Under the pieces are notes generated by a model. That model was not told the DNA's origin. It saw only the letters and a list, made by a program, of their open reading frames with translations, and did not search any database. The position numbers were made by a program, and so were the translations under genes. A DNA stretch of 59,941 nucleotides, the filler included, from Hausera hauseri (Eukaryota): NCBI GenBank assembly GCA_046269625.1. It is 10 parts of 10 records of this genome, joined end to end, with 100 filler letters (N's around TTAATTAATTAA, not from the genome) between each part and the next. Parts side by side here need not be neighbours in the genome. Positions count along the whole stretch, not along the records: positions 16,806 to 27,751 come from JBJURY010141093.1; 9 more parts are not named here. One strand, 5' to 3'. The stretch's first letter is position 1. Every line of letters starts with the position of its first letter. Shown here piece after piece: positions 374 through 31,900 of the stretch.

Positions 374-715
374 GCTCAAGGGGCTTGCAGGTAAACTTCA
401 ATCAGAAGTGACCTACTCTCTGATCTGAAGCAGCACTGCAGATGAACATTCTATTTATGTTGCACTCCTCAGGAAAATAAGTTCAGTGGAAAAAGTATTT
501 CTCCTTCATTTCTAAAGATAAAATGAAGCTCTTTGAATGAGTGCTTTGAAGTTTCCTGAAAATCTTTTTTGCAATTCAGCTGAGTAAAGAGATTCGTCAG
601 CTGTGTCACCCTACAGTTTGTCTCTTCTCAAATTAGTTTTCCATTTGAAGGCTCAGTAGAATGCAGTCAAAAGTGCTCAGATTTTTTTTGGTCAAACACA
701 CGTCACTTTTGTGGG

Positions 716-2374
716 CACGGAATCAAAGCTTTGATTGCGATAAAGCGGAAGTAGGATCTACATATACCTTGGTTGATTTAGAGAAATGCCCTGATGCTGA
801 ACCGGACAAAGTGACAACAGAATCTGCAACGAAATATTACATTTATCAAGAAAATAAATTTTTCGAGTAAAAGCGCTAGAGTGTAAATTGACGAAACAAA
901 CAAAAATGGCATTGTGGAAAAGCGCATACTCGTTCAACGAATCTACTAATAGCATTACCAGATGAGTCCCGGCGAGTGCTACCAGACGATTCTAAACAGG
1001 CGGTGAGACTGGGTAAGTTAAAGATAAATGACAAGGTGGAAATAACGACAATAGTTAATGGTATTAAATACCTCACAATAACTGAAGGAGGTATGGTAGA
1101 TAAAGACGGAACATGTACAGGACAAACCGTGGATGACGTATCACGGATAGTTGTGCAAAACCTATATACTTGGACAGTCACCTATAAAGAAATCACGTTT
1201 GACGTTGAAACATTGAAATTAATGATTCGGGTGGACTGCGTATATGGTAACGGGTATTGTTTTACCTCAGACTCGGTAATTACCTGGAATGTAGAAGTTA
1301 TAACCTGCAATTTAGCCTTTATTAAAGTTGCAACATTCAATATCACGAAAGGTGTTAGGTTTTCAAAGCCAACGTCACCGCGCTCTGAGGAGGCGGATGT
1401 ACAGCAATTAACAGAGATTGAAACACCAGCAGTCCTAAGGTCAACAGTTGATGACGCAGTACGATTGACAAGAAAACAGATAGTAACCAAATGTAAAACG
1501 GAGATGTATGCTACAAATGTGGAAATGTATACATTAAAACAACCGAAGTTGAAGACACAAAAACAAGTACACCCAACCGAGTACACCCAAACAACGGGGG
1601 GTATTCGGCAGAACTACTGGAGAAGGGCTAGTAACATTCCAGTGTCGGGAAGTTGATGTACTTGTGATAGACACGGCCACATGCACTAATGAAATAGCTG
1701 TCAAATATAATAGACACACGAGATACGTAGCACCAATAAGGAGAGTAATGTTGTTACCAGCAGAAAATCCAACAATATTAAAGGAGTGCATAAGAAACGT
1801 TGAATCATTGTTTAAGATTGAACATGATCACTGGGTTACGATGCCGTCAAGGACGAAAATAATAACCCCACAGAAACTGACGATGCTGGCATTAAACCAA
1901 CAACTGAAATTCGACAATAATGCTAATTTCTTTCAAGGAGGGTTGTACGATGCGACTAGTATGGAAAAGTTAAGAAGGTATTTATTGTTTCCGAAGTAAT
2001 TACACAGACTTATAGTGTCATATACGCAGAGAGTTACTGATACGGGAGATGGAAAAACAAATTGGGAAAATGTCTTATCCCCAGATCACTTCACTAAAGC
2101 CGCAAAGACGATGTTTAAAAAACTATGGGGAGAAATGAAGACGTTTGGAGAAGTACCATCCGGATTTCTAGCTATTTATTTCATAATGCAGATTATGCGA
2201 ACGATAATCGCCCAGATAACTAGTGGGTTTGTAAATTTCCAGCTATTTGGCTGCTCAAAGAAAATATTAACAGCACTTTGCACACCGTTAGCCAAATACG
2301 TACAGCATGCATTAATGGCCCAGTGGATGAGAGAAAGAGAAAGACGATATGACATTATGATGGTAGTGGAATAG
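716..2374 (+). pseudogene. Chuvirus-like glycoprotein (env-like), frameshifted, with an internal deletion
   Basis: N-terminal FDCDKAEVGSTYTLVDLEKC; GGMVDKDGTCTG; CVYGNGYC; GVFGRTTGEGLVTFQC; C-terminal LWGEMKTFGEVPSGFLAIYFIMQIMRTIIAQITSGF hydrophobic segment; collinear with 18440-20283. Confidence 0.8.
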
Positions 2375-2870
2375 GCAGAGTGAGTATCTGTGGATCCAAA
2401 TGGTCAAAACAAGGAAAAATACTAAATAGTAGAAAGCCAAAAAAGGATATATGGAAATGGATAAAGAACTCTAGCAGTAAAGAACGAGACAATAAAATTA
2501 ATAGTTGTACTCAATTGTACCAAATCAAAACCAGGAATCAGGGAAGACCGTTGCCAAGGGTACCCATAACCGATGATAATGATGTGGAAGAGTTAAAAGA
2601 GAATCAGATGGATGCGTTATGTAGCGGTAGCAGTGCTAAGTATATTAAATACCGAGAATTACGGCAACAATTGAAGGGCATGAAGAACGTTACATCAAGT
2701 AGATTATCTATCGCCGAAGTAAGGCTAGTAAATGAAGAAAATTCGAATACTGACAACAAGAACATGACGGTAAAAGTACTACGCTTTAATAATTTTGTGC
2801 ATTACGCTCTACTAAAAGGAAGATGGAGACGAAGAGACCATATACATTGGTTACCGTTCATGAAGATTAG

Positions 2871-5310
2871 GACGTAGTAGCTTTAGTGGATACTGGTTGT
2901 AACGATTCAATAATATTACTATCGAGTATACCCGACAGATACAGATCGGAGTTGGACCCACCCAGGAAAGGGGACCGAGCAACCGTATCGGGATGGGGCG
3001 ACAAATTAATGCCAGTAGGCTATTGGACAACTTAGATAATACTCTACAACAAACGCTTGAAACACACATTTAAAGTATTTGACAAATTGGTTGAGGACGT
3101 AATTGTAGGACTTGACTTACAACGTAAATGTACAGGGCGATACTTGAACTTGACTACGGGACAGCTCGCAATACCAGCGGTAAAGTTCCGAAAAGAAGTA
3201 GTCATTGTACGAGAAGGAATCATCTTGGAACCTACCAGTGAACACATTATACAAGGATATGCGCCAAATATGGTAAATGGAACTATGCTATTCGAACCTG
3301 ATGTGGTATCAAATAGCAGGCAAGGAATAAAAGCGGCGTGCAGTATTAGTACCATCAACGAAGGTTACTTACCAATTCGAGTAATGAACACAGATAGACA
3401 AGCAGATTTACTCAGACCAAATGCAATTATTGGACAATTATGCGTCATATCACACATTATTCAGCCGAAGGAATGTATTGACACGTTTGTAGAGATAGAT
3501 AAAATAAAAACTGATTTAGTTGGGAAAGATAAAATACGTCTATTGTGTGTTCTCAGAAGGCACCTAAAAGCTTTCGCTAAATTTGACACATATTTGGGTA
3601 AAACCGATCGCGTAGTGCATCGTATTCCGTTGCTAAACGAACGACCGGTAAAACAACGACCGCATCGAGTTCCATATACGTTACAAAAAGAATTTAATCG
3701 TCAATTACAGCAAATGTTGGAAAATGATGTTATTAGAAAAAGCAATTCGTCATGGCTATCACCAATCGTAGTAGAAGCAAAAAGGATGGTGGAGCTAGAA
3801 TTTGTATAGATTTTCAACAATTAAACAGTTAGACAATAAAGAAGTCATACCGGCTACCACTACAGGAAGATATATTTGATAAATTAAGAGGCTCTAAATA
3901 TTTTACAACGATGGATATGCAGAGCGGGTACTGGCAAGTCCCACTAGCCGAGGAAGATAAATATAAAACGGCATTTTCCGCCGGTAAAGGTCAATATGAG
4001 TTTAATGTAATGCCTTTTGGACTATGAAATGCTCCATCTACGTTCCAAAAAACCTTAGAAGCTATGTTGATAGATAGTACGCACGCAATGGTTTACATTG
4101 ATGACATTGTGATATTTTCACGGACGTTGGACGAACACTTAGTTGACATCGAAAAAATCCTTGATTTGTTGGAAGTATGGGGATTTAAACTGAAGCTTAA
4201 GAAATGTGCATTTGCAATGTTGAAAGTTGCTTTTCTTGGTCATACTGTGTCAGCTGACGGCATAGAAGTGAATCCAGAAAAAGTATCTGCTATTATGGCT
4301 TGGCCAATCCCAAAGAGTTTAACAGAACTACGCGCGTTTTTGGATACATGTGGTTATTACAGAAAACATGTTCCAAACTTTAGTACAATAGCAGCTCCAT
4401 TGTTTGCGTTAACTGATGAAGGAATTAAATTCTTATGGACAATAGAAACCCAGGAATCATTTGACACTCGAAAGAAACTTTTGTCTTCAGCACCAATACT
4501 CAGATATCCGGATTTATCCCTGTCGTTCATCGTATTTACTGACGCAAGTAACACCGATTTGGGAGCTGTTTTATCACAAACGCCACCAGATTCAAAATTG
4601 GAATATGTAATTGTGTACGCAAGCAGAACCTTGTCAGAAACTGAACAGAAATACGCCGTAATAGAAAAGGAAATGTTAACAATTGTCTTCGCAATGGATA
4701 AGTTCCGATATTAAGTGGGAGTGCATGAAGTGAAAGTTTTTACAGATCACGCGCCATTAGGTTTCTCAACAGTAAAAGACCCATATTCAAGACTGAAATG
4801 ATGGCAACTTAAACTGCAAGCGTATAATTTAACTATATTTTATCGGCCGGGGAAGACCAATAGAAATGCAGACGGACTATCGTGCAGGCCAGCGACGGTT
4901 GAGGGTCTAGAACGTCTAGAGAAAGGATACGAGTCAAAACATATATCGCAAATGATGATTTTCCAGACAACTACTATGCATATCCCGGATGATGAAATTC
5001 ACATATTGATTAACCAACAGGAACAAGATATCGAATTATGCGTAATTCGAGAATTTGTACGAACGCGAGAGATTAATACGTCTAATAAAGAATTGGTCCA
5101 ACATTTGATAAATGAAGGTGCGAAATACCTTATTGCGTCCGAATTATTACGTTATCGGAACCTGCAGTAAAGAAAGGCAAGTCCTCAAAGTTAGCCCGTC
5201 CGTGGCAAGGCCCCAATAAGGTCGAAAAGGTTACAGAAACGAATATTTTTATACGAAACTAATGGGGAGACGAGAAGAAATCATAACCGTCTCTGTAGAC
5301 CGATGAAAAA
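2871..5310 (+). pseudogene. pol: Gypsy pol: aspartic protease, RT, RNase H, integrase C-terminal GPY/F remnant
   Basis: ALVDTGC (DTG 2889-2897, missed by the ORF track); GYWQV and YEFNVMPFG; YIDD at 4094-4105; FTDASNTDLGAVLSQ; KLARPWQGP near 5190-5215. Confidence 0.95.
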
Positions 5311-5329
5311 GGCACCTTTAAATTTATAA

Positions 5330-6493
5330 GTGGAAATACTGCAACAAACGGGCATCGCCCAAACCAGAAACGAGTTAATCTCATCAAACCAAGGTGTGTC
5401 GAAACTCTCTATATTGTATACGTTTTGCCTGTTTATGAGCTTGTGTTCGACATCTCGTGGAATAGATATTGACTGGGGATGGACTCGTCAGAGAAACGAA
5501 TTACGTTTATATACGTTGGTATCAGATATTCTTAATGACATTAAGGTTGGAGTTTTTATGATACAGGGTCATAGGCAATACCAACGGTTCTACTGTGAGT
5601 TTAAACCACTAGGAGGCCACTGCCACTATAAATATCCGGATGAAGGAACACTACAGCAAGTGATCGAAGAATAGGTTAATGGTACTCAAATCAGAAGATA
5701 GAATTCAGAAATAATAAAGATCACGACGTTTTCGTATCAAAAGGAAATCCCAGTTTATATATATTTGTCTGAGAACCAAAAAGGGGTACAAATGCGAGTT
5801 GTCTCGAGAGGGCAAAAATGCCCACTAATGATTAGGAAACAAGGGGAGAGCTCTAAACGGGTAGTTAGATATCAACGCGATTTTAACTATAGCGAATCAG
5901 CTTGGCTAGAACTCAGTTGTTACACAGGCAATCTGCGCCGGTATATTAATTTCCAATGGATTCAAGCACAAGCTAAGCCGTTAAATCTATCAGGCGAATA
6001 CCTTTAGGAGAGAGTATCGTCAACGAAGGATGATAAATTAAAGGAAACGTATAGAGTTCCGTGGATTTTTATACGGCAAGATATGAATATTGTCACAATC
6101 TTGTTGGGCTCGTATCACAGAGCAATAAAAGTACTGTGTCGTAGTGCTACAGGACATCAGGTAGAGAATGGTGGTTTTAATAAAATTCAGGTCACGAAGA
6201 ATTATAGCCTTGAGATTTCAAGCACTAGCTACGACATTGTCCAATTAACCTTTATTATACATGGCTTAAATAATTTTATGCTACTTAATACCACCTTAAA
6301 ACTCATTGTACCTAAACTATTGTTGGTTTCAAAGACTATAGCAAAAAACGTGTACACCCTACTGTTTCTTCTATGCTGCAATGTCTTATCTCGAATATCA
6401 CTTATATATAAAAAATCAAAGAAAGGGACGCAGGAAGAAGTACCACAGCAGACAACAAGACCCAAGACGGCAAAAACACCATTGCATAATTGA
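5330..6493 (+). pseudogene. Putative type I membrane protein downstream of pol (disrupted)
   Basis: Signal-like SILYTFCLFMSLCSTSRG; Cys-containing ectodomain fragments; hydrophobic YTLLFLLCCNVLSRISLIY followed by basic KKSKK. Confidence 0.55.
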
Positions 6494-8531: not shown

Positions 8532-8548
8532 AGTTTCTTTTGAGACTA

Positions 8549-9300: not shown

Positions 9301-9349
9301 ATTTTTCGTTCAGCTTGATCCAGATACTTTCTGGTTATGAAAGGTTTTT

Positions 9350-11868: not shown

Positions 11869-11877
11869 TAATTAGTA

Positions 11878-11977: not shown

Positions 11978-11997
11978 ACGTTTGGCTTTTTTAAACA

Positions 11998-12736: not shown

Positions 12737-15700
12737 TTATTTTAGCCGCCAATGTCCATACGCCCAACTCTTATTTCTCCCAACCCACTTTCACTTATCA
12801 TCGTCACATGACAAAGCGACTTTCGCACTAGTTATTGTGTACAGCTGGTGCTGAATTGATTGGATTATAGTTTGAGACACAACAGCCACTGATTGTCCTC
12901 CTTCTCATGCTGTAGCTGCTGCTGCTTCATATATACGGCAATAATCACCGTGGCCAATTTCCGTCTGCTGCAACTGGAATCCTTTTGCTCGAATTTTCGG
13001 TTCACAGTCTGTCAGGAGACTGTAGCACTTTGTGCGTAAAAATATCCATTCCCGATACTGAACCAGACCTTCATTTTCATCCGTGAAGCAGCCGATTTTG
13101 TTGATTATCGCGCTGCTGTATAACGGATGACACGGTTGGTAATTGGACGTGTCCAGTAACCCATCTTACTGTATTTTATGCAGTATCTGTTCGCGATTGA
13201 GTTTTTTAACCGCAGGAAAAAACCGTCTGTGTCACTGGCAATTATACTAATGTCACAGCCGTCAAAAATTTGCCGGTAACGTTCCAAGTTGCGATACTGT
13301 AGCTTATACATGCGCAACTTGCTCATGTCCAATACCATTTGTCCGATGTGACTTGGCCGATCCAGTATGACTTCTCCTCTGTTTAATAGCACCGCAACCA
13401 ATCCATCGTCAATGCTCATTGATTGCCGAAATTGTCTTGCTGGTATACATAATCAGCCGCTTTTCGGTGTTGCATAGGCGTACATTGAGCCGCTTTTTCA
13501 GATTCGCCACTGTTTGTCCGTACAGGGAATTGTTTTCCAGTTTGTAACCGTCATTTTTGTACTTTGAACAAGCTGCGGCTCGTTTCTCCGAATTTCCATC
13601 TATGCACGCCTTGAATATAAGCGCCTAAGCAAATTGGATTGCACGATGCAGCTATGCAACGCGAACACCGAGCTGCATGCAGAACTGTAGCAGATGCCAA
13701 TGGACCACGTAATTCAGCTTCGGTTCATGCGTCATGAGCAGTTTCTTTACTTTTGAGCCTGGTGGACATTAGTTAAATGGTGCAACCGGCAAATCGTCCA
13801 AAACGTCATGCAGCTCATCTGGTATCTTGAGATCGACCGCCATAAGTTGTCCGACTGAGCTTGTCATGTCTGCTCGTGGTAGGTTGACCATTATGTCGTC
13901 CAGATCTTGTCTGTCGACTACCCATTCGAATGAACCGTACGGCGAGGGTTGCGGAAGTGCCCAGCCGTACAAGTTATTAATACCAATATACAGCAGTAAT
14001 GTGGTATCGGTAGCACTGACTGCTGCTTGTTGACAAATGCCATGCCACCTGAAATACCAACATCAAACAGTTGGTACATTTCCGGGTCTTGCAGCAGCTC
14101 AATATCTCGATCCAGTGACATTAGAGCTGACGCCCAACTCTTTCCGAGTATTGAGTAAAAGTTTAGTGGTTTCAGCCTATCTTCAGCCAACGCTTTCGCC
14201 CGAAACGCTTGGAACACATCGGTTAATAAGTACACGTCCAATTACGATACTGAAGCATGTAATCCAACATGTTTCTGTAGCCGAGTTCTGTCCAACACAT
14301 CTGCACTTTCCGGTATTCATCCTCTGCGATACCTGTCCATCGTGGCGGTAATTCCTCTGCTGTTCGGAGTCTCTCATATGATGCTGCAAAGTCATATGGG
14401 AATATGCCTTTGCTACGCGCAATATGTGTGGAAAATTTCGTCAATATTATCGGCACATCCGAGAAGGCATTTACGAGATTTGCTAGAGACTCATTGAGAA
14501 ATTGCAATAAGTCGAGGAAGCGTACTTGGAACCGGTTTATGCGTGCTGACAGGGACAGGTATTTCTCGATTGTTGTTGGGATTACTGACAGTTCCCAGTG
14601 AGCAAACCCATTAATTGTCCATTTCAGTATATGGTGACAGTAATAACCTCAAAAATTATGAAAGATTACCGGCAGGAATGGCCGCACACGCCTTTCCAAA
14701 TTGCACAAATTGCATGCTGATCCCAAATATCGACCGGTGAAATGGTCATGGTCCGGTACAAGCCGTTCGTGTGCATCGAACGGTAATATTTTGTGGCACA
14801 GATAGCATTCATCGGTTGCAGCGAACATCGGCGGTTCATATTCATCTGTCCAAATCAATGGTTTAATGGAATTATTGCGATACCACGGTTCGATTTCCGT
14901 TTCTATTATCGTTTCCAAACGCTGCAAAAAATTACGTACGTAGTTCCAGCCGTGAAAGGCGTAATACTGTGGCTAACAGACTGCTTTTATTGGACAAACA
15001 ACATACCAACGGCGATTAAAACGTGTTTTTGATCCCACATGGTGTGCAGTGGTAGAATTGCCTCAATATCGGCATATACCACATATGCCAGACTGTTCGT
15101 TTTTGACCAGTCACTGAATCGGAGCTCCTTTTTGAGTGGCATAACGTACATGGTTGTTCCAGTTGAATTCTGCTTGCACAGCGTCACATGTTTCGACCAT
15201 TTTGTTTTTGACCTGAATCTATGCAGACATACAGGACATCATTTGCATTGTATTCGCTTTTTGATAAACTGGTCATGCTCCATGTTCAACAGTCTATTTA
15301 GATTTGTCACTGCCACGTAATGAACTTTTTCGGCCTGCTCCAACAGCAACAAATTTACCGAGCGTCAGTTCGGGTTCCGACTGCAATAAATTATGTCCGC
15401 ACCGGGGTTCTTATAAATTTATTCGTTTTCCGGTATTTCAATTATTGTGTTGTACTAGAAAACATTGATTTACAGCACCGGATTATGCCGTTCAAAAGCC
15501 GGAATCATTTTCATCGGCATCCAGAATTCATTAAATTTAAATTCGGAAACGTACTGCCGATACTGATTTGGACGATTTGCATGATATCTGTTCACTTCGC
15601 TGTACTTCAATACAGCCAGAATACTGTACAGAAAACAGTATTCGTCGTCAGTATTTTGTACATTCACTACCGCCAGAGACTGCTTTAGATATGCAGGTAT

Positions 15701-16190
15701 CCTATGAATAACCGTCCAGACAAATATACCACGCCACTCAACTTTGTTATGATAAAGCCGAGTGTGACACTTCGTATAAATTGCCATCCACTATCCTTTT
15801 CGGTATAGTTGGCGATCTTCTCATCCAACTTTTCGCATATATCGGCAATAAAATCTTCCGAATACGGTACGGCTCGATATGACAGGTACCATTGTTTCCT
15901 GTCACCTACAACGTTTTCAAATTATGCAAGTGCATAATATTGCACTTTGCAGTTGTTGCGTTTGAATTTATCCACCTGTAATTCCAACCGGCTACGCACA
16001 CCGGACGGAACATGTCTCAGCTGTACTGTTGTTGTCCTCGAAATGTTTGCTTTCATGTCCACGTACGATTTGATTAGATCGTACTTGACAGTAATGGAAG
16101 GTTCCTGCTGTTGCACCTGCTGCTATTCGGTACTGTTTTGGATGTATTCGTCAAGACGTGTTCAGGCCTGACGTTTCCTGCTTGTTCAGA
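12737..16190 (-). pseudogene. Polinton/adintovirus protein-primed DNA polymerase B (pPolB)
   Basis: VVYADIEA; DHDHFTGRYLGSACNLCN; VIFHN; KGIFPYD; DVYLLTDVF; NNLYGWA; NSLYG; SDTDG; C-terminal DDDK...SWAYGHWRLK* ending at 12737. Confidence 0.95.
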
Positions 16191-16608
16191 GGTTACTGGT
16201 TTTTTTCGTCGACATCACTATTTCCTTTCTGGACCGCTGAAATTGGTTTATGTGGTCCTTGTGCTGGTTATAAAATTGTTCATAGCTGATTTTATCAACT
16301 ATCGAACAACCGGGACAAACGTAGGCCCGTTTACCGTGCACCATTGTGGCGTCATAGTATTGCCCCATTGCACTATGGCAACCATCAACTTCATGTACTC
16401 TACTACTACAATATCGGGGGTATGTGTGGCAATGCACAAGCATCATCTTTTTTGCACGCTTAAACGGCCAAGATGATGCTTGTGCATCGCATAAAAGTTG
16501 GGGTATAAACAAGGGGATGAAATAATAACGCACGTTTGGCCAAATGTGAGTCCGTGCCAACGGTGTAACATTTAGCCATCTGCTGATGGTACTGTTCCTG
16601 CTCCGCAT
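16186..16608 (-). CDS. Cys/His-rich (C2H2-like) region immediately upstream of pPolB
   Basis: YVCPGCSIVDKISYEQFYNQHKDH; homologous to 46839-47462 and 54060-54472. Confidence 0.65.
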   Translation of the reverse strand: MRSRNSTISRWLNVTPLARTHIWPNVRYYFIPLFIPQLLCDAQASSWPFKRAKKMMLVHCHTYPRYCSSRVHEVDGCHSAMGQYYDATMVHGKRAYVCPGCSIVDKISYEQFYNQHKDHINQFQRSRKEIVMSTKKTSNL

Positions 16609-16705
16609 ATATGGGCGAGACGCAATACATGGGATAATTACAAAATAAAATAAATGTTTTATATTAAGTTATAAATACTATAAATTGAGAAGTGACTTAT
16701 AAACA

Positions 16706-16805: not shown

Positions 16806-17087
16806 TGGGCTGCACACTTGAACTGTTCACCAATCGATGCATCTCGATGTGCTCTATCGAGTAGCACTTTGTCCCTATCGATTTGATTAATGGCGCACTG
16901 TGCAGCGATCGATTTGCCAAATGTGCAAAAGTGCCCTTAGCAACGGTGCCTGGCGCCACCGTTGCCAGGCACTTTTTGTATGGATAGTGCTCCGGGTGCA
17001 CTATCGATTGGCATATGTGCAAAACTGATTTATCGATTACCCCTCCCCCCACCCCGGGTGGGACAGAAAGCACATTTTCACACTACT
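16806..17087. mobile_element. Probable Polinton terminal inverted repeat end
   Basis: GC-richer palindromic block ending CACACTACT; ACTACT at 17082-17087 is the reverse complement of the canonical Polinton 5'-AGTAGT terminus; abrupt switch to A-rich retroelement coding sequence afterwards. Confidence 0.65.
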
Positions 17088-17195
17088 GACGAGAAAATAA
17101 GACAATTGTTGCCACAAATATGACAATTTGAAGAAACTTGCATTAAAACCAAACAGAGAGCGGTAAGATTAGACGAACTAACTAAAGGGCTCAAA

Positions 17196-18167
17196 GTGTA
17201 TAAAAATAACTATGCTCTTACAGAAGCAGAAAAGACTGACAAGTCACAATTTGTTCAAAGATGGCCAAGAGACGTAGCCTCCGAGTTAACCAATTATCAA
17301 GAACCAGGATTTATATCAGGTGAAGAATTGTGTCAGCTGCTAACAGTATTACGCCAAACTTCCGGAAACGGACGTTGTTTCCGAAGCACACAAATGGTTA
17401 TAATGCAACAAAAACTACGGGAACTAAGAGAATCAAATAAGGATGCGAACTTAGTCCGGCCGTTAGAAACTCCGGAGATTGATTTCGGACTACCCGAAAA
17501 CGAAAACGAATGGGACGCGTATCTGAATGCAATAGTTGCCGAAAACCCGAAAACTCCCGTGCACTTGTACGAAACGGAGACATGTCCACCAGATCAGAGA
17601 TTCAATGTGGAGATGCTTCTGGACTCGGCACAAACTGAAAAGGATCTAATAAAGTTAATAAATGTAAACCTTACCGAAAATCAATTAAGACGGTTAGTTC
17701 CCACCCTAACTAAATTATCTAGCGAAGGTACGATTTATCGTGCTGCACAAAAACTTTTAATCAAAGAATATGCTAAAATCTTAAGGACAAGGCCCGAAGA
17801 GACGATTAAAGTAATAATAACGTCTGACTGAATGGACTAGAAGGAGCACGAGTTTACAACACGTTCCCTTGTGAAGGATGTAGCACTGTGGTTAAGGAGT
17901 AATGGTCATAAAAATGAATTGAACTGTAGGCTTCATTTTAGAGGAAGAATATTAGACAAACTGGAACTACTAATAGAAATTGGAATTATTCCAGACGAAG
18001 CAAACCGCATAGCGGTTACCATTCCCACCGACGAAGCAAAAGAAGAGGCCACCAGAAGGGCGAAGACTGAACAGTGGGTAGGACGAATTGTAGGAGTTCG
18101 ACATGCAGCAATGTACTTCAAATACTTGCAAAAGATGAAGACAAGGAACAATATGATAAGAATTTAG
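17196..18167 (+). pseudogene. N-terminal ORF with a ubiquitin-like domain (about 17800-18030)
   Basis: ORFs 17196 and 17871 are in one frame across two stops: TIKVIITSD*MD*KEHEFTTRSLVKDVALWL...CRLHFRGRILDKLELLIEIGI, compared with ubiquitin [21 protein letters not shown]. Confidence 0.55.
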
Positions 18168-20283
18168 TGCCACCCAGTAATATCGCACAGACAGTAACCA
18201 AACAGAAGCCTCCTGTCGGCAGGCCACGGAAGACACGAGAAGAAATCGACTATAACGGAGACATATTCGAATTTAATAAGACCACAAGCTTGGCAAGGAA
18301 GGCTGCCAGGAAACTGCCCCAAGAAGTAAACTGGTCCAAATTATTTGAAAAAGAAGAAGAACGTCAAAATAGACCCTTTCTTGACAATAATAGATTTGTA
18401 GACCTGCTACAAAACGTAACCGGAAATAATAGAGGAAATGGGCCAAACTGGCTAATTAACTTCTTAACCGTGATGATGTTAATAAGACAAATGGGTGCAG
18501 TTACAGTGTACGACTGCGGCAAATATAAACTTGGCCAAAAATACTCATTAATGGACTTAGAAATGTGTGAGGATGCGAGACCACATAAACTAGAAACAAA
18601 AGAGAAAAATTACGTGCTATACCAACAACGCGAACTAGTTACATTAGACGGAATAGAATGTATGTTGCGACGATCCCGTAGTATTTTCCATTGTGGACTA
18701 GTACATGAGCATATATCGATAATCAAGCCAACAACCCCACCAATTCCGATGAACTTAGAACGCCAGCACTGTAAGCAAGCTAGACAGACTGGAAGATTAA
18801 AATGGGATGACATGGAATTGGAAATGCAACAAGGAAAGATAATTAGAGTATATAACCCGGCAGCTGGAAGACTACATATGCATATCGAACATTGTCACGG
18901 TACGGAGTATGATACTGGAAAGGGATTAGAGTCGAATATCGTAGTGGTAGATTTTTACAAAACCGAGATGCGCCTACAAAAGGTAATGTTCCGTAGCGTT
19001 ACTAAACTTTACACGGAAAACCAGAAGTGCCACATTCAGGACGGTACTTGCTCTTTTAGAAGCTCCGTGGTAATTTGGGAACTCCCAGCCAAGGCCGATT
19101 GCAATTTTATCAGAATTAAAGAACTTAAGTTTAATGAGACAACAGGGAAACGATACATACGTAGCACGGAAACTAACTCTAAAACACGAGAAGATGTAGC
19201 CAAACAGTCCACACCTGCTATACTGATTTCTGATATTTATGGATTAAAATTTGTGAAGATGTACTAGAAAGATGCAATGTCATAATGTACGCCACCAATT
19301 ATGAAGAATTCATTGTAGCTGAGACGGAGATAAACGCCAGAACGTTTAAGCTCGAGACTCAAGATATTCGAATTGAGGATTATTTGAAAGAGACGACCAT
19401 TTCTACTATAAAGGACAAGTTGGAATAGCCGAGTTATATAACAAAATGATAACAAATGACTGCAAATTTGACTTGGAAGTTATGAGGACTAAACTGGTTT
19501 TAATATATGATAACCCCGAATTAGCGTCACTAATAATTCCGATGAAAGAAGGCGTTTTCGGTCGGGTAACCGGAGAAGTCCTGCTGACCTATAAATGTGA
19601 AAAAAACGATGAACCTATTAATATGGAAGAGAAGAGGTGTATACAGGAACTTCCAGTAATATACCAAGACGTACAAAGGTTAGTAACACCAATTACTAGA
19701 GTATTGTTGGCAAACTCTACTCAACCGACAATTTTGAGACTGCAAGACCAGCCTAGGCGAATCAATGTTCAGACGTAGCAAAACCTATTGGGTAAGTTTG
19801 CCAAACGGCGGCATAATTACGCTGCAGACCAAGTTAACAGGAACAAACTTAATAATAGGAAAAACCGATGATAAATTTCAAGATACCGCCGCAAAGGGCA
19901 TTTAACGACCAAAAGAGGTAGAGGCGTTCAGACAATTCCTCGCTTTTCCTCGTCAGCGCACACATGAATTAAACAGAACGATGCATACAATACCAGAGGA
20001 CTCGCGTTATCAAGCGAAGTGGAAATCATTGCTTGGTGTCAACTACTACCGAAGAGTAACTACGGAAATATTGTATAAAATTTGGGGAAGATTCCTGATA
20101 TTCGAACAAGCCGCGTCAGGATTCCTAGCAATTTATTTCTTGATTCAACTGATCAAAGCGATAATTCAAGCGATTATAAATGGATACGAGATATTCACTT
20201 TGACAGGATTCTCGTGTAAGATTCTAACAGCTATTATAACACCTCTCGGTAAATTCTTAAAGGCTTATAAAGAGAGTAAATAG
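18074..20283 (+). pseudogene. Chuvirus-like glycoprotein with internal signal peptide and C-terminal membrane region
   Basis: WLINFLTVMMLIRQMGA/VTVYDC...YSLMDLEMC...IECMLRRSRSIFHCGLVHEHISII...CKQARQTG...AG...CHG...GVFGRVTGEVLLTYKC...CIQELPV...IWGRFLIFEQAASGFLAIYFLIQLIKAIIQAIINGY. Confidence 0.85.
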
Positions 20284-20959
20284 AAAGCGGATGTGGAACG
20301 ACATGTTGACTACCATAATCGAAAACGTAAGACATTCGATTACAAGCAAAAATTCATGGATACTAATACACGAAGATATAACTCTGACATGACGAGCCTA
20401 AGGGAGGAGACGTTCTCTCCAAGTCGAACAGGCACAAAAACTACTCTGCTATGAAACTACCATTACCAATACTACCGCCAACGGCACCTATATATGAAGA
20501 CTGTGAGAAACAATCTGAGCTCGTGCCAGACAGGAGTCAATCGGAAGCCGTTTAATCTAGAGGATCCTTACGAAGGAACAAAACACTATGGGATATTGCG
20601 TAAGATCCACGAAACAAAAAGAACGTCTGCCCCACATCGCCGCGCGGCAATCGACGATCACGGTATAATTTATTCACCTAGAATACCTAAATCAAACGAA
20701 AGGCAGTCAACATTTACCGGAAGCCGCGAAACACACCATCTCAGAAACCAAGAGATCCAGCCGCCAGTTAGAAAACAGGAGATAGAAAACGTAAATGGTA
20801 TGAATAACGAACTATACCCAATTGGAGTGTTAAGACAATTAATCGATTGGCCAGTTGAAACCACTGATGTCACCATCAACGGCTATACGTTATCCACAAT
20901 ACGACACCCCCACATAGAACCAAGCTATTACGGTGCCGTAATCGAAGGAAGCCCTTCGC

Positions 20960-23900
20960 AAAAATTCAAATAGAAGATTGGGAAGTTTGCGGACTGATAG
21001 ATACAGGATCCTAAATCTTGCTGATAAAGTATAATTCGATACCACAATTCCTAAGGAAACAATTATATCCATCTCCTACAACAGACCCAGGAAGTGTCGG
21101 AGCCTTCGGCCAATCGTCTAAAAGCAAATTTCGTTGGAAATTGGAAATTCGCATAATGGGACAATCTTTCCATCATGAATTTTCAGTAATGGAACAATTA
21201 ACGGATGATGTAGTATTGGGGTGCGATCTATTGAGGCAACTACCCAACATAGCGATAGATTTCAATGCAGGGAAATTAATAGAACTTGGTCCAATAAAAG
21301 GATTAAAACCACTAAATACAAAAAATTCGGAGAAATGTGGATTCCCGTGGATGAAAACATACCGCCCAGAACCGAATTGCTAATATATGCTCAGATACGT
21401 CATGATGACGATCAGAAAGTATATTTTAAGCCAAAAGAATCGATTAATCCTAACATTGTGCTCAGCAACGTTTTGACAAGAGTATCAACGGGCCGCGTGC
21501 CAATTAGAATAGCAAATAACGCACCGACCCCGATCAAGCTATATGCCAATACCACTTTGGGACACACGTATAGAGTGTCATCAATTACTATCGAAGAGAA
21601 ACCGTATAAAGGCTCCGAATTTCCACCCCACGTTGAGATCAAATTTTCACCGGAGTCATATAGTCGATTTTACGAATTACTTTGTCGATATAGCTCGGTT
21701 ATCGTAAAAGATGAAGAGGATATTGGCCGAGCTAAAGCTTTAAGACTCACGATCCCACTTAAGAAAAAGCCTGGGTCCAACGATAAAATAGATTTAGAGG
21801 ATCAAAAGATGCCGAAATTGTATCCCCTCCACACTCGTTAAGACCGGAGATAACCAAGGAGGTTGAACGGATGTTAAAGGCAGACATAATCAGACCAAGC
21901 TATAGACCTTATTATTCACCTATCCTTATGGTTAAGAAGAAATGTACCACTAAGCACCGATTTTGTATCGATTATCGAGCGTTAAATACGCTCACGATGA
22001 AGGACTCTTTTAAATTACCATCGGTAAAGAAAGCTCTGGATAGGCTTTCTGGAGCTAAATGGTTCACCACACTTGATTTAAAATCCGGATATTGGCAAGT
22101 AGAAATAGAGGAAGAAGACCGTTACAAAACCGCGTTTAAGACACACGACGGTATATACGAATTTAACGTCATGCCATTTGGAATAACTACCGGACCAGCC
22201 ATCTTTACCGGCATGATGAACAAGATGCTGATGGGATTAGAACACGCGTTCGCCTACCTAGATAACGTCATGATTGAGATAAAAACGGAAGAGGATCATT
22301 TAAAGGATATTGAAGGTATGCTCATGAGATTGAAGCAAGCTGGATTGAAACTGATTCCTAAGAAAGGCAAATGGGCTCAAAATGATGTATCTTATCTTGG
22401 ACACAGTCGGGGAAGGAGGATCAAAGCCGGATAGATCATTGCTAAATAAAATATAGGACTGCATGGAACCACAGAATCAAAAGGAACTAAGATACTGGTT
22501 GGGATTATGTCAGTATTATGCTACGTATGTTTCAGATAATTTGGAGATAAACACACCCTTGAATCGCTTGCTTAAAAAAGGGATAAAATGGAAATGGACC
22601 GACGTTGAACAGAAACATTTGATGAAATGACGAAAATTCTAACTAGTGAATCTGTATTAAGATATCCTTACTTCAACCTAACGTTCATAATCAAAACAGA
22701 CGCCAGTAAGGAAGGCATCGAATACGAACTAGCTCAGAAACGAGGAGACGAGGAACTAGAACATCCGATCGCATATGGAGGGGGCTCTCTAAAGAAAGCC
22801 GAGAAAAACTACTCTGTAACGAAGTTGGAAACGCTAGCGGTGAATGAAACACTGAGACATTTTAATGTATACGTCTATGGACAGAAGATTGTAATCGTCC
22901 CTGGTCACAAGGCGGTCACAACCTTGAAAGGTAGAGCAAATAATCCAACCTGTAGACTCAACAGATGGATCTAGGAGATCTCACGTTACAACATTGAATT
23001 CCAATGCAAGCCTGGAAATAAACATGTCGATGCCGATGCATTATCGAGACTTAAAACTAAGACAAGCGCAGTTGCGGTAATGAGGAAAGCCCACCTGAAA
23101 GACTTAGTAGAAAGACAACGGACTCTCACACTGGATAAGGCATTGACGATTTCTATCGAACAGAGAAACGACAAAGTTATACAACAAATTATCGAGTTTG
23201 TTGACACCAACAAACCACCAAATGGTCATAAGTTACGGAAACACCTACGACGACATGGTCACAAATACTGCATCGTAAGAAATTTGAACCACGGAAATGT
23301 TTTGTACCACAGACGAAAGGGACGAAAACTAGTCGTCATATTAAAGGGACTACGTGCGGAAGTACTAATGGCTGAACACGACTCATACCTAGCCGGACAA
23401 ATGTCGTGGAAGAAAACATTGGAAAAAATATTAAATAAATATTACTGGCCGAGCATTTACATTGACGAGATAAATTGGGTGAATGCTTGTGAAGTATACG
23501 CAATCAAACAGAGAAAAGTGAAAAACTACATCACGGAACTTAAACCTATCAATGTGCCAGATAGACTAATGCAGGCAATGTCCATGGATATTGTAGGACC
23601 ATTGCCTACAACTCACAAAAACAATAAATACATTTTGACCTGTGTAGACCGATTGACTCATTTCGTCGAGCTTATAGCGTTAATAGACCAAAAGGCCGAG
23701 ACTTTGGCAGAAGTAGTAGTCTGGAAGATTATTTGCAGATACGGACCACCTGAACAAATTTTGACAGACCAAGGAAGAAACTTTACAAGCAAATTGTTCG
23801 AAAAAATTAACAAAATTTTTGAAATTGGACGATTAACTACCACAGCTTATCATCCCCAGTGTAATGGAATGGTTGAACAGATGAACGCGACAGTTACATG

Positions 23901-24420
23901 AATCTTATCAACAGTAGTCGCAAAAGACCAGAACGATTGGGACGAGTTTTGAGAAGACACAGTTTGCCATTAATACTACACCACATCCTGCGACGGGATT
24001 CACTCCATTTTTCATGATGTACGGTAGAGAAGCTGTATTGCCCACAGATTTAGGACTGATCCCATACATAACAAGAACGGAAGATTTAGAGCAAAATTTT
24101 GTCGAGATTACACAAGTGCTGGGAAATAGCCAAAGAATTATCTAGAGAATACCAGGAACAATTCAAGAAGCAATACGACAAGAAGGCGAAACGACACAAC
24201 CTAGAACCAGGAAACTGGGTTTACGTACACTATCCAGTGGCAAAGAAAGGCACGTTTGTTAAACTTACCAGGACAGGCAAAGGACCTTATGAAGTTATCA
24301 AAACTACATCAACCACAGTTTATATAAACAAAAACGGCAAGGAGGAGGTCATATCAATTCAAAGACTAGTCAAAACGGAAATAAGACCAAACAAGCGCTA
24401 TAGTTTGCGTTCGAGCAAAG
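20960..24420 (+). pseudogene. pol: Gypsy pol: protease, RT, RNase H, integrase with GPY/F
   Basis: GLIDTGS (DTG 21000-21008); RFCIDYRALN; LDLKSGYWQV; YLDN (mutated YxDD); KTDASKEG; MDIVGP, LTDQGRNF, NGMVEQ (DDE); GKGPYEV. Confidence 0.97.
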
Positions 24421-24469
24421 CAAAATTGGACTATACAAACAAAGAAAAGAAAACGTTGTCGATAGTGAC

Positions 24470-25798
24470 TAGACCAATATCGTATGTACAAGTAGTCATC
24501 GCCTTATCGTTAATCGCTTCGTATATACCAAAGACAAGGTCGATAACCCGAACCGAAAACTACAGTATGCGGCAAGACGAAGAGATATCCAAAACTTACA
24601 GTCACTTAGAGTATATGATATGGATTGGAGCAAACCATGTGCATGGTTCGAAGCAAGTGAACCTATTCTGGGCCATGTAAAATTTCAAATAATCTTTGTA
24701 ACTAGATACACATGTAAAACATGCGATTTTCCATACGGAGCTCATAGACAATGTTGTAATTTAGATTTCAGACAAACCTACCGATACAGATTTCAAATGT
24801 TCTATTATAATCAGCCCAGAGCCCAAGCATATATAATTACTGAACTTTTAATAAGGATGCCTCAACGAAATGACACGAACCAAGCCAAGGCGGATGAGAT
24901 AATCCAAAGTACTGATGTATTTAAAAGGCTCTTAGATTATAACATTGTTGGGATTTCCAATGACCTAAAGAACCAATGTATCCGAATCAAAACCAAAATA
25001 GAACTGCAAGGAGACAGATACATTTCTGCCCGATTTATACAACTGAATGCCTCGACTCCTATTCCGGAGTATTGTTATCTCGCACGACGACGGCCTACGG
25101 TATGTTGTAAATTGCAGCTAGGACACAACTACCAGTTACAGTTTGATCTGTACAACACTTACCCTAAAAAACCGAGTACTTACTTACGAGGATACCGTCC
25201 AAAAACCGGAATATAGAAACTTCCGTTTTTAACCACTACAAGGAAACCGTCCACTATTCCAAGTACAATTCGCACTACTGCAATCGTCACTTCGGAGGAA
25301 ATGCCAGAAAAAGAACTAGGGAGCATACCGGTTAAGATTTTGGCAAAAAGTGATAAAATTCTATTTTATGCTGACGAAACGTTAAATCAAGACGTCAAAA
25401 TTGAATGTCGCATCCTGCACATTAACCAAATCATAATCCTAAGAAAGAATAGTCAGGAAACTGAATGCAGTTCATTGCGACCGCAGCATAACTATATAAT
25501 CCGAATCACCTGGAAGAGTAAAAACCCTAAAACTTTTACAGTCCGAACTCTTGACAACAAAATTGATGTAATGCAGTATAAAGATCTTAGTACTCAGAAT
25601 GTGTCTACCACAAAAGATTCTATTGAGCCAGACAATTTACCGATGATAGCTATATTAAGTTTGTCAATTTTCGTTCTTGTCGCATTAACAGCGATGATTT
25701 TTCTAGTTTCCAAAAATTGTAATAAAAACAGTAAAAATCAAAAGGGAGATAAACGGGTAAAAGGATGCCAAGACGAACTTTATGATAGCATAACTTAA
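24470..25798 (+). pseudogene. Second type I membrane protein with three Cys-containing FN3-like repeats
   Basis: Signal-like YVQVVIALSLIASYIP in frame with the IN tail; repeats CCNLDFRQTYRYRFQM, CCKLQLGHNYQLQFDL, ECSSLRPQHNYIIRITW; TM MIAILSLSIFVLVALTAMIFLV then basic tail. Confidence 0.65.
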
Positions 25799-25903
25799 CA
25801 ATTACACATCAGGTTATCCTATCATCAGACAGCGAAAATGTTTTGTTTCAAAACGATGATCTGTCTTAGGATTGACCTTTATTTTTATTTTAGCAGAGTA
25901 AGT

Positions 25904-27150
25904 ATGGCCGAAAAAGCGAAGAATCCAGCCACCAGCTCCGGATATGACATCGAAAACGTCATGCAGCAACATGTAACAGTCCTCAAACCATTATCTAAAA
26001 ACGTATATCGTCAAATTGAAGAAAATCTGAAAAACAACACTTACGTCGAAATCGATCAGGAAAATAAAATACCAAATGGGTTAAAATGGGGTTTAGAGGA
26101 AAATCGACTGATTCGGCTATACGAAATGCGAAGCCCCAGAGACGCACGAGCATACCTGTTGAGAGATATGATTCCATATGAACCGACGCATCAGCAATTG
26201 TACGTACATATCGCTAACGGAGAAATTCAATACAGGATCGTAAGTCAATCCTGGAGCGCACAAAAGGGGCAACAATGGAAATTTAGCACTTATGAGTTAT
26301 GTTGCTATAGTCTCATGAACTATGCTATGGAATTTAGAATCGCAGAAATTCCAACCAAACTCATGTTCGAAATGATCTGGCGGACAGAAGTAATGAAACC
26401 GCTACCACCATTAATGTGCATACAAAAGCCTTCAGAAGATGAGATAAAAAAGAATGTAGAATCTTATAGATTAGTTCAGACGGCCATAATACTCGAATTT
26501 TAGTTGTGAACTATGGAGAAAAGGATGGTGGATGGTATACGCCGATTGAAGTCGCGATTCGAAGTACAAACTGGGAAGAACTTATAAACAAAATAATTGC
26601 ACCCAGAACTAGGGTGAAGGACACCTTTCCCGATGTTACCGGAATTACGAAAGTACTACTCGAAATATGAAAATATTTCTTAGAAATCCAGGAAGATATA
26701 AACCATTGCTTATATGGATGTATTGCAACCGGATTTCGAGTGCACGAAATGTTGGAACGACTGAGAATTAGACAAGAGTATATATCCGGAATTCGCGAAC
26801 TAAGTCGGAATCCAACGGTTGTAAGACGAGTAGAAACCGTTTTAGTGAGAAAAAGAGGGTGTCTACTTCCGTCAGCATCACGTAAATCACAATTCAAAAT
26901 GATGTTATAAGCCATGAATGGCGAACGATTTAAATTTCCTAAACTAATGTCAGCGAGTCAGCGTACGAAGCTTTAAAGGTCATTTACGCCTCTCTGACAT
27001 GGGAACATGAGTGGAAACCTATGAACCCCATACAGAATGTGATGTCCGACAACAATCCAAAAATCTTGATACAAAAATTTCTAAAAGGGTTTAGCGAATA
27101 CTCAACTCATACAAGTTCAGCCGCAAGGACACAATCGATTTTGAGTAACG
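25904..27150 (+). pseudogene. Accessory ORF of unknown function
   Basis: ORF to 26503 from ATG 25904, with coding-like continuation in another frame; same strand and composition as the element. Confidence 0.45.
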
Positions 27151-27494
27151 GTTCATAATAATTCAACGGAAACGCCCAACCGTCGACCAGCCGAGCCCGA
27201 GAAAAAATTGAAAAAAATTCAAGTAACCCCGAAACTTTGAGAGAACAAAAACTAAAACTCCCTTCTTAGAGTATATTATCAAGAAAAGAAGGAAAACTAG
27301 TAAAAACCCAGTAAAAGAAAACAAGTCACCTGAGCATACAGAAAAACCCACAAGACGAGAAGCCGATAATTCTGACGAGATCAAGATGAGAACTGCCGAT
27401 ACAAAACTCCGTAAGATGGAAGTGTGAGGAGGAATTTAAACGGATATTAAGGTTTAAATTCAATTCAAAGTTAGTTCAAATTTAAGCCAATAAA

Positions 27495-27751
27495 ATGTCA
27501 GGAAATTCAGGAAAGGAGGAAAATAAGACTCATTTAATGAGTGAAGAAGACAATTTTTATACAAACTTTTATAATAAATTTCTAACGCATAATTCGGTCT
27601 TAGAACCATTGAGTGACGCTGATGTCGGTTTGATAGAAACGCAATCTACTAAAATGGCGAACCACGCTTCAAGGGACTTCTTCGAAAAGAAATTGATGCC
27701 AAAAGAATTCCAGAAAGGTGACAACGTGGAAACCTTTATTGGAAAATGCGA
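27495..27751 (+). CDS. Start of a Gag-like ORF, cut by contig end
   Basis: LMPKEFQKGDNVETFIGKC resembles the P..F..G.....F...F start of retrotransposon capsid domains. Confidence 0.5.
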
Positions 27752-28999: not shown

Positions 29000-31900
29000 T
29001 GTCATTGTCAGTTCATTTGCAACATAAGCCCAGAAGTCACCCAGATTCTTTTCCTTAAATGCAATTTGAAGTCCTCCATTAGTAATTACGTGGTGCGTTA
29101 GGTAAGTCCCTGGACTCGACAAGAAAAAAGAGACCAAACCTGTTCAAATTTTAATGACATTTACATAACCCAACATACACTCATTTCTCAATTTATGAAC
29201 CATTTTCCTCCACAAATTCATTTTCGAAGAAATTTGGAGCTAATTTTGTCAGGATTTGCTCCTCTTCCTCCTTCGGTTCTTCTGCGGATTGAAAATGGTG
29301 ACCTTTCAGATGTTGTTTGAGGTTGCAGAATAGCACAAAATCACTGGTTACCAGGTCCGGGATGTATGGAGGGTGCACCTCAAGCTGGAAGCCACACTCT
29401 TCTGTTGTGGCCGAGGAGATGTGTGACGTGTGAATTGGAGCGTTGTCATGTAACAGTCAGAGAGGGACGCCTAGAGACTTTCGCCGACGTTTTCGCACAT
29501 CACGCATAAGCTCACTGCAGTACTGTGAGTTCATCGTGGCTTCTCGGTCCAGGAAATCGATTTTAATAATGCCGCGAATATCCCAGAACACAGTAAGCAT
29601 GGCAACCGGTTCGTCAGATGTCCCACTGCGAAGCTTGCGTGGAGCTGATTCTGATGACATTCGCCATTCAGCAGGGTCCCTCTTTTTCTGACCCTCAGTT
29701 TTCTGATGCCAAAATCCTTCAGGATTGCATGAGTAGTGAACGTACTGACGTGGAGACGTTGCATCAGTTCACGAATGCTGATTCTGCGTTTAGAGAGGAC
29801 AATTTTCTGGCACAGTTCTCGTTTTTCATCGGAAATTTCAGGCGATCTTCCCTTTCTTTCCTCGTCGAAAACTGACTGTCGACAACGTTTAAACTTCCCA
29901 ATCCAGTTGTAAATCGTTGAACGTGATATGCACTGGTTCCGGTAGACCTCCTGTAGCTGTTGGATGATTTCTTTATTCTCAGTGCCTTTCAGCACAAGGA
30001 ATTCGATGACGCTGCGATATTCAATGTTTGACGACATCGCTTGCACGAAAATCACAAAACTGCCCTGCTCTGTCACCTAAGCAGCAGCACAAACACGACA
30101 GTGCTAAATTTGTAGCCACTAAAGTGACCGTTATTTATAGTAACAACGTCATTATTACCATCATTCTATTTATACACGAGTCCATGGAATTATCTAATGG
30201 AACACGTAAGTCTTCCTTGCCTTTAAAGGGCATGCCTTCTTTTACTCTGAACAGATCCCGAATCCATGATTTAGTTTTATCAAGGAAAGGAAAATATTCT
30301 CTTTCTTAGACTTTGCAAATGAAGCACTGTTGACAGGTTTAGGAATGATTCCAAATTTCCACTTGTGAGTTTTTTCTCCTACAACTCCAATTTTAGAATG
30401 GTTGATTCAATTTTGTCCTCAACATGGAAACAATTTATGTTAGCTCCTTGAAGTTTAGTATTTAATTCATTAAGATAGTTGAAGATATCGGTTTCTTAAG
30501 CTAATTTTGTAAGAAACCCTAAATTATTCAAATTTTATGGAGCAAATTTTTCGGAGTAGTACGTTTCAGTGTGCTCTTCCATTAAGACTAACCTCACTTC
30601 ATTGCGTAGCTGCTAAAATCGAGTCAGTGTTTTTCCTTTGGATAGCCACCTTATTTCAGTATGCATTAGAAGTATGTAGTGCTCATTTTCCATTTCTTTA
30701 CATAATTCTGATAATAGTCGCGAATTCAGCGCCCTACATTTTGTAAAATTTACCATTTTGACACATTCGTGTAATGTTTGTTTCAGTTCAACTGGAATTT
30801 TTTGTCACCAAAGCTCCCAGATGGATATCACAGCAATAACAGTCACCACTTGGCAGATGGTGTTATTTCCTAGATTCTTCACCTTAGACCTGTTATCCGT
30901 TCGGACATGGCTTTGGCTCCGTCAGTGCTAACTCCTACATATTTCGTTCAGTCAATCTTGTTTTATCGAAAAATGCATTTAATTTTTCAAAAGTTTCTTC
31001 GGCAGTATTATCAATTAAGAAAACCGACAAAAAACAAATCCTCTTGAATAGTGTTTTCGTGCTTATACGTCACGCAATACAATAAAACTGCCTGATTAAT
31101 AACATCTGTAGTTTCATTAAACTGTATGGCAAACCAAGATGTACGAACTCTTTCTATTAATTGTTCTTTAATGCCATCTACCATGCATTCAATTATCCTT
31201 TCTACCATGTTGTTAGTGGAATTTGTGAAATTTCTTTGAGAGCCTTACCACCAATCATTGATGACACCATAGTTTTTGCTGCTGGTAGAATGAGTTCTTC
31301 GACAGTGGTATGAGGTTTGCTTTTTTGAGCTATGAGTTGAGTCACCTTAAAGCAGGCAATTGCGGCTAATTTGTTTGATCCTGGTACAATAATGTTAGAC
31401 ATAATTTTTGGAGACTCTTTTAACTGGTGTTGTTTCTTTTTAACGAAATCAACATTCCTATGCTGAAACTCTGAGTGCTTTGTTTCAAAGTGTTTCTTTA
31501 ACTTCGCTGGTTTCATGGAATCATTTGTTAAGATTTGACCATAAATGTGATGCATTGTGGTTATGTTTCGGCACTATGCGATGATGATCAATACTCTGTA
31601 AAACTTAGAGTCAAATACCCTATATTATATCGACGGACTTTCTTGTCATAATACTTAATAATCTTGTTTACGAGAAAAACTATTGCCCTTGCTGCTAGTA
31701 CCGACTGACATTGAATGTATCACAATATTTTCAACAGTGTCATCATTTTCATTACTTCTGTCTCGCCGCTTTGGCTTTGATTCCCAGTTTTTTGTAATTT
31801 TGTAAACAACCAACGCTTTATAGTTCTTTAAAGACAAAAAATTGTAAAAATGTTTTGTAAAAAAAATTGTACTTACCACATATTGTCTTAATTTTCTTCT

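Follow-up and report, generated by a model that had tools for sequence, protein, structure and literature searches.

The question raised by a 59,941-nt stretch of Hausera hauseri DNA (GCA_046269625.1; hereafter the window) is whether an envelope glycoprotein (Env) can be embedded in one polyprotein with the Pol enzymes of a retroelement. The window consists of 10 pieces joined by N/TTAATTAATTAA spacers, and piece 4 (16807-27751) contains the main element, a decayed Ty3/gypsy element carrying a gB-type Env, Pol and a membrane protein with fibronectin type III (FN3) repeats. The order of its domains is ubiquitin-like cargo, internal signal, Env, anchor, linker, protease (PR), reverse transcriptase (RT), RNase H (RH), integrase (IN), second signal and FN3 protein (Table 1). 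Pfam and profile matches defined the PR-RT-RH-IN order of Ty3/gypsy (Metaviridae) Pol, while PF24664 and the alignment to relatives defined the gB-type Env, with its signal and anchor, upstream of Pol. Three Env pieces matched PF24664 (E 6e-16, 3e-13 and 2e-17); the Env profile gave no match among solved structures, and the gB type is assigned from the PF24664 sequence match. The explanation that we consider the best overall, and hold to be probable, is that this is a dead element of the Burro kind, whose intact relatives make a polyprotein threaded through the endoplasmic reticulum (ER), with Pol hanging from the Env tail.

The piece 4 element is a dead copy, with 10 stops and 12 frame changes in 17124-25795 (8672 nt), most of them within Env, RT and IN. 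It belongs to a many-copy decayed family, because one public sequencing run contained many diverged copies (28,755 contig records over all 30 bins, mostly 90-95% alike); none of the run contigs spanned the linker. The first-pass annotation of the window had placed a signal about 125 codons inside an open frame, and this was confirmed: 18071..19267 is open, the signal-like stretch starts at ~18446, and no methionine precedes it in that frame. The best-of-three-frames stop count of 18140-18457 was equalled in 2 of 1000 shuffles. The integrase tail was also correctly described as running in frame into a second signal, as the frame 24090..24680 carries the IN C-terminal tail and then a hydrophobic signal-like stretch (24474-24536). 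Upstream of Env, the openness of the frame at 17124-18128 exceeds chance in a shuffle test, and this frame matches the pre-Env cargo of the single-frame relatives P0134 (E 9e-8), P0123, P0037 and P0136. The profile of the pre-Env ubiquitin-like domain (A5) matches ISG15/ubiquitin with an E value of 1e-6. Because the 17124-18128 frame resembles the relatives' cargo and holds the ubiquitin-like domain, its sequence suggests that it was likely part of the same polyprotein as Env. A structure-atlas search with the helical and ubiquitin-like module gave no usable match, and a likeness of the helical module to TFIIS-N, seen by eye only, was dropped, since none of the 60 listed PDB matches supported it.

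The relatives of this element were then compared. In an RT-IN search restricted to proteins of 1485-4725 residues, seven of the best 120 of 560 matches also contained PF24664, and the best full-length identity (39%) was that of three of the seven. Their Pfam order is Gag-Env-PR-RT-RH-IN. Because a length-limited search favours fused forms, a search without a length filter was used, and among its best 150 of 175 matches 12 near-type proteins reach the anchor, 10 of which continue into the protease. Two loci from a metagenome scan, L001 and L002, have one frame of 3703 codons and one of at least 3426 codons on DNA, respectively, while the other relatives rest on gene calls. A search of viral_contigs and a first metagenome scan yielded no loci, and the N-terminal half of Env gave 0 matches among 1148 candidate proteins of 698-2000 residues. 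In the RT tree, for which 54 of 128 rows were kept (non-Env rows were thinned at 70% identity; six near-copies and one BEL protein were left out beforehand), both window families fell in one clade (99/91) with nine other rows, in all of which Env is joined to PR. P0140 and P0151 fell in another clade, and P0049 and P0060 were unplaced. As read from their sequences, natural relatives thus encode Env, Pol and a second signal-bearing protein in one polyprotein. The cargo varies among the relatives, and includes Gag with CCHC knuckles, ankyrin and BCL2-like domains, the last with weak matches (PF00452, E 1e-3; Bcl-2 chains, E 0.14 and up).

Some further features of the relatives were observed. Two to four protease-like copies follow Env in P0122, P0121, P0037, P0123, P0137, P0141, P0158, L002 and P0034, and one further copy lies between the integrase and the second signal in P0034 and P0137; such tandem copies may work as single-chain dimers. 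P0197, probably a rearranged copy, is a distant PF24664 protein with an RNase H domain attached directly to it.

The linker between the Env anchor and the protease is the place where the single frame has to be weighed. This stretch had been described as coding-like in two copies of the element, which in fact are two diverged families on separate contigs: the element of piece 1 (1-7243) has the same layout as that of piece 4, with no blastn match and 25-54% amino acid identity in tblastx. The description holds for the scarcity of stops. The linker at 20284-20946 has 1 stop in 221 codons, while each of its other two frames has 14; a count this low arose in 1 of 1000 shuffles. The piece 1 linker (2380-2820) has 0 stops in 147 codons, versus 13 and 19 (0 of 1000 shuffles). 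Several observations, on the other hand, speak against an undivided frame. In the main copy the stretch is interrupted by two stops (20281, 20452) and a frame change at ~20945, in the piece 1 family there are two frame changes between the anchor and the protease, and both families shift frame just before the protease in the sense of a programmed -1 shift. The linker codon-usage score came from a model trained on the main copy; 80 of 1000 shuffles reached that of the main copy itself, and 996 of 1000 that of piece 1, and the score gives no support to coding. The early searches were limited to proteins of more than about 1500 residues and favoured fused forms; two of the 12 near relatives, P0135 and P0149, both known from gene calls, extend no further than the anchor, and the searches together gave 31 more distant Env-like proteins that stop past the anchor and have no protease. 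The piece 4 RT sits on a long branch (1.14) as the sister of all other clade members, with an unsettled bootstrap. Neither Gag nor a long terminal repeat (LTR) or primer site was found within piece 4. A long direct repeat was found in none of piece 4, L001 and L002, which are all short contigs, while a Gag capsid is present in relatives and in the window piece 7344-11877.

One explanation of these breaks would be that the stop at 20281 is real, so that Env ends after its anchor and Pol has a frame of its own, expressed through readthrough, splicing or an internal start. The position fits the end of a short-tailed Env, the piece 1 Env frame ends similarly (2374), and both P0135 and P0149 and the 31 stand-alone proteins offer parallels. 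This is, however, very improbable, as homology to uninterrupted relatives extends through this stop to 20322-20418, the 660 nt that follow are open in the same frame, the great majority of the near relatives (the 10 of 12) read on, and the two linker stops are explained by the stop density elsewhere. Alternatively, Env and its tail could be one protein, with a programmed -1 frameshift immediately upstream of the protease giving access to Pol, and only a fraction of Env would carry Pol. The frame change of the same sense in both window families agrees with such a shift. Less Pol would then be made per Env, much as many gypsy elements limit Pol at their gag-pol junction. We nevertheless judge a programmed shift improbable, because no canonical X XXY YYZ slippery heptamer is in frame in either window linker, the other rows of the RT clade (9 of 9) are in frame at this junction, and most of the 12 frame changes of the main copy lie in RT, Env or IN, where decay is the only way to account for them. 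The number of breaks between anchor and protease (3 versus 1.75 expected, P(>=3)=0.26) is also at the background rate. Because of this rate and of the RT clade, it is likely that the ancestor of the piece 4 copy had Env, Pol and the second signal-bearing protein in one polyprotein. The proposal of one long polyprotein is hence supported for the natural relatives and likely for this ancestor, while the piece 4 copy itself is broken.

A second membrane protein follows the integrase. All 10 near relatives that reach well past the integrase (P0034, P0035, P0037, P0069, P0123, P0131, P0136, P0137, P0140 and L002, with clusters counted once) have a signal-like and a later anchor-like stretch there, while P0041 and P0151 end earlier than this region, and the distant P0049 and P0060 are without these stretches. 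A basic YxLR motif in the integrase tail (24399-24413 in the window) precedes the second signal in the window and in most relatives. The ectodomain varies, being cysteine-rich in P0034/P0035, Ig in P0131, and built of repeats with a CxxLxPxTxY-like core in the others. The window repeat at 25304-25573 was predicted by AlphaFold2 (10 rows) as seven strands with pLDDT 85.5, and Foldseek matched the model to FN3 domains (32 matches at E<=0.001, TM 0.57-0.70). The profile of this repeat matched receptors, including IGF1R, neogenin and DCC, in 15 of 15 PDB matches (best E 0.002), all of which we take to be FN3-bearing. The modelled fold of the repeat is thus that of fibronectin type III, and alignment indicates two further FN3 repeats in the ectodomain, where an internal repeat was also seen. 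Pfam gave no FN3 match in the second ectodomain, and the sequence likeness of the window ectodomain to those of relatives is weak (E 0.003-0.03); the AlphaFold2 model of the whole ectodomain (3 rows, pLDDT 33.7) was not used. The C-terminal residue is valine in 6 of 10 relatives, while the window copy has no terminal valine.

L002 has an extra signal-FN3-like-anchor cassette (4745-5340, residues 1582-1779) between its second and third protease copies, and hence three membrane proteins within one Env-Pol frame. Because this cassette has both a signal and an anchor, the parity of inside and outside would be kept, and Pol is predicted to stay cytosolic around it. No such cassette inside Pol was found in the literature search.

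The linkers of the relatives contain motifs that resemble retroviral late domains. YPx(1-3)L was found in 11 of 17 linkers, versus 0 of 15 equal stretches before signal 1 and 2 of 10 integrase tails, and overall its density was 6.35 versus 0.73 per 1000 residues. PT/SAP occurred in 4 of 17 linkers, and four of the five PT/SAP motifs in these 17 proteins fall in the linker. The shuffle means for 16 linkers were 1.1 for YPx(1-3)L and 0.08 for PT/SAP. The main copy has a late-domain-like YPxxxL at 20812. YPx(n)L motifs are known to bind ALIX, and PT/SAP motifs TSG101. These Env-tail motifs are predicted from sequence to recruit the ALIX/TSG101 budding machinery. Two observations count against this prediction: the piece 1 family has no late-domain-like motif in 2353-2874, and five pairs among the 17 linker sources are more than 60% identical in Env, so the motif counts are not fully independent. 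Apart from three close relatives, the linkers could not be aligned with one another.

The same motifs could have another meaning: the single frame would still be right, but the motifs of the tail would serve in sorting or as protease sites, the element would form no enveloped particle, and Env and the FN3 protein would let cells fuse with or touch each other. YPxL is likewise a match to the YxxPhi pattern of endocytosis signals. A particle for Burro is not reported in the parts of the literature covered (PMC6431247, PMC8532177). We consider this possibility unlikely, since only the YP form is enriched and other YxxPhi motifs are not (8.8 vs 9.2), and since PT/SAP co-occurs with it. The distance from the motif to the protease varies from ~12 to 70 residues, which argues against a fixed cleavage site.

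The ER-threaded polyprotein, which we prefer, could work as follows. The breaks in the piece 4 family would be the result of decay from an ancestor with the same single frame. Signal 1 would send Env into the lumen and be cut by signal peptidase, and the Env anchor would stop translocation and bring the chain back to the cytosol, where Pol would stay attached to the Env tail, probably to be released by the element's protease. After the integrase, signal 2 and anchor 2 would repeat the cycle. By forming trimers, Env could place tethered protease copies next to each other, and it could also take Pol along into particles, for which the tail YPx(1-3)L and PT/SAP motifs would recruit ALIX and TSG101, while the FN3 protein may act in attachment or targeting beside the fusogen. 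We infer both the cleavages by signal peptidase and by the element's protease, and the processing and budding. For Pol to be cytosolic, the weaker hydrophobic stretch that follows the Env anchor must stay outside the membrane. This stretch scored below the anchor in the window and in 12 of 12 correctly parsed relatives (15 were tried; one was mis-parsed and two were unmatched), which is only a hint that it does so. The distribution of N-glycosylation sites was uninformative, since it does not tell lumenal parts from cytosolic ones. Flavivirus and hepacivirus polyproteins and foamy virus Env are comparable in their working only, and no homology to them is claimed. In these systems, signal peptidase cuts at internal signals, and glycoproteins on the lumenal side are thereby parted from enzymes in the cytosol.

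The layout had been called unlike that of known retroviruses, which is true of Retroviridae; it is not new, as Env inside a Gag-Pol polyprotein has been published since 2019, when planarian Burro/GYPSM1 was described with its env placed in frame after gag and before pol (PMC6431247, Burro section). The piece 4 element is likely of the Burro kind. Burro shares with it PR-RT-RH-IN and a ubiquitin-like domain before Env, and has env in frame upstream of the protease (PMC6431247, same section). This in-frame env is broken in piece 4, and is present in the nine RT-clade rows and, on DNA, in L001 and L002. Gag with CCHC knuckles and the BCL2-like and ankyrin cargo recur in the relatives, and many decayed copies are a further likeness, while piece 4 shows no Gag, BCL2, BIR, MATH, ankyrin or LTR. 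The BCL2-like domain just before Env in Burro has no match in piece 4, and in the place of the Burro dUTPase-like domain, between PR and RT, piece 4 has a domain shared with its relatives, for which a 3-row profile search gave no dUTPase match. The Burro section of PMC6431247 names no post-integrase membrane protein and no late domains. Burro is giant (over 25 kb inside) and planarian, while piece 4 is 10.9 kb and is set beside Burro by description.

A continuous gag-env-pro-pol frame is also reportedly present in the nematode NERV elements of Sacco et al. (2022), which are not known to have a second membrane protein. The flipped order of NERV elements is described in PMC13524379, as far as this paper was covered, and the nematode Env rows of its supplement look, by eye, distant from the piece 4 family. 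The same portions of PMC13524379 describe GAG-ENV-POL errantiviruses with HSV/gB-type Env in Platyhelminthes, Nematoda and Bryozoa, which are like the piece 4 element in gene order and Env class. Judged by eye, our relatives are much closer to the six Schmidtea Env rows of supplement 2 than to its bryozoan and nematode rows. Taken with the likeness to Burro, this makes a flatworm host probable for the element in the window. Those portions of PMC13524379 treat three open reading frames (ORFs), with no mention of a fused form, a polyprotein, a single ORF, fibronectin, late domain or Burro, and with nothing described after the integrase. Anakin (BEL/Pao with a chuvirus glycoprotein) and chuvirus G share the Pfam family PF24664, and differ in that the Pol class is another one and Env is last or alone (e.g., P0124), as far as can be taken from the parts of PMC7642597 covered. 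Troyka was rejected as a counterpart, since according to the part of PMC12440569 covered it has no envelope protein, while Env is present in piece 4. The working of Env inside a Gag-Pol polyprotein is not addressed in the literature covered. A TM label is reportedly present in Grohme 2018, and that paper, or the figures of PMC6431247 and PMC13524379, may annotate a transmembrane segment after the integrase. Neither a post-integrase FN3 protein nor Env-tail late domains in such elements were found in the literature search, of which Grohme 2018 and Jurka 2007 were outside the scope.

Table 1. Features of the elements in pieces 4 and 1 (window positions)
Feature	Positions	Strand	Basis
Pre-Env cargo frame: helical module and ubiquitin-like domain (~17600-18035), two stops, without Gag core	17124..18128	+	relatives' cargo, profile A5, shuffles
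Open Met-free leader in Env frame	18071..18445	+	frame analysis, shuffles
Predicted first internal signal peptide, here of only moderate hydrophobicity	18446..18499	+	alignment to relatives' signal; KD 1.74 over 13 residues
gB-type (chuvirus-like, class III) Env ectodomain, split over several frames	18500..20109	+	PF24664; collinear with relatives
Env membrane anchor (20110-20187) and weaker second hydrophobic stretch, the latter probably not crossing the membrane	20110..20280	+	KD19 2.19 vs 1.09
Env tail/linker to protease; stops 20281, 20452; frame change ~20945; YPxxxL at 20812	20284..20948	+	frame and motif analysis
Aspartic protease, DTG motif, one stop	20949..21242	+	profile match, E 1e-11
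PR-RT spacer domain common to relatives; position of Burro's dUTPase-like domain	21302..21763	+	alignment
Reverse transcriptase, with damaged active-site motif, and RNase H; region broken	21829..22971	+	PF00078, PF17919, PF17917
Integrase (zinc, core, C-terminal tail), broken	22975..24470	+	PF17921, PF00665
Second internal signal peptide, predicted, in frame with integrase tail	24474..24536	+	hydrophobicity; same place in 10 relatives
Second ectodomain: FN3 repeats and Thr-rich stretch, one stop	24620..25633	+	AlphaFold2, Foldseek, profile matches, internal repeat
Second membrane anchor (25634-25723), short tail, stop	25634..25798	+	hydrophobicity
Separate downstream frame; 3′ part resembles DEDDh exonuclease frame of two intact relatives	25904..26910	+	pairwise E 1e-7 to L002
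Second family (piece 1): Env, anchor, linker (2353-2877), PR, RT, RH, integrase tail, second signal (5405-5455), anchor (6359-6412)	601..6493	+	Pfam, alignment

Downstream of the second anchor, L001 and L002 have a stop and then a separate DEDDh exonuclease frame (12085-13473 and 10617-12107, respectively), which RNase_T PF00929 matches, and a homologous frame is present in the window, where the DEDDh acidic motif looks degenerate. P0140 seems, by eye, to hold a DEDDh exonuclease-like domain before Env. At the edges of piece 4, the summed depth of 16810-17173 and 27366-27700 in run X1 is far above that of the element interior, and these regions are likely either another, more abundant repeat or an LTR edge. 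Short inverted and direct motifs were seen at 16864-16923.

The family in piece 1 is without an integrase core, with the integrase tail directly after RH at ~5150. The piece at 7344-11877 (minus strand) is from a related element and carries its Gag and a long cargo region, which in two stretches of ~400 residues share 49% identity with P0149; P0149 continues into ubiquitin-like and BCL2-like domains and Env. Four pieces (11978-16705, 43928-48374, 48475-55252 and 55353-59941) are Polinton-like, with a protein-primed DNA polymerase B (PF03175), an rve integrase (52053-52718) and a TBP-like match (PF00352, E 3e-6; 50094-50819), and an N-terminal piece of a Mos1/Tc1-mariner-type transposase lies at 29531-30076 (minus strand).

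As a dead copy, the piece 4 element adds little alone, and the weight of the finding is in the second glycoprotein and the tail motifs. The relatives give a testable model, with paired signal/anchor cassettes, late-domain-like motifs moved to the Env tail and a receptor-like protein after the integrase. If true, this model would be a route of retroelement assembly different from Gag-driven budding. Schmidtea would be suited to a test of it: loss of PIWI there leads to strong BURRO1 expression, with BURRO1 RNA rising on smedwi-2 knock-down, according to the covered part of PMC8532177. More tentatively, and with somewhat more doubt than belief, we suggest that Burro-like elements could be flatworm two-glycoprotein retroviruses on a flavivirus-like plan, in which the polyprotein would cross the membrane four or more times, budding would depend on late domains for the endosomal sorting complexes required for transport (ESCRT) that lie in the Env tail rather than in Gag, the fusogen would carry Pol into the particle as its tail, and the choice of cells entered would be set by an exchangeable FN3/Ig attachment protein after the integrase.

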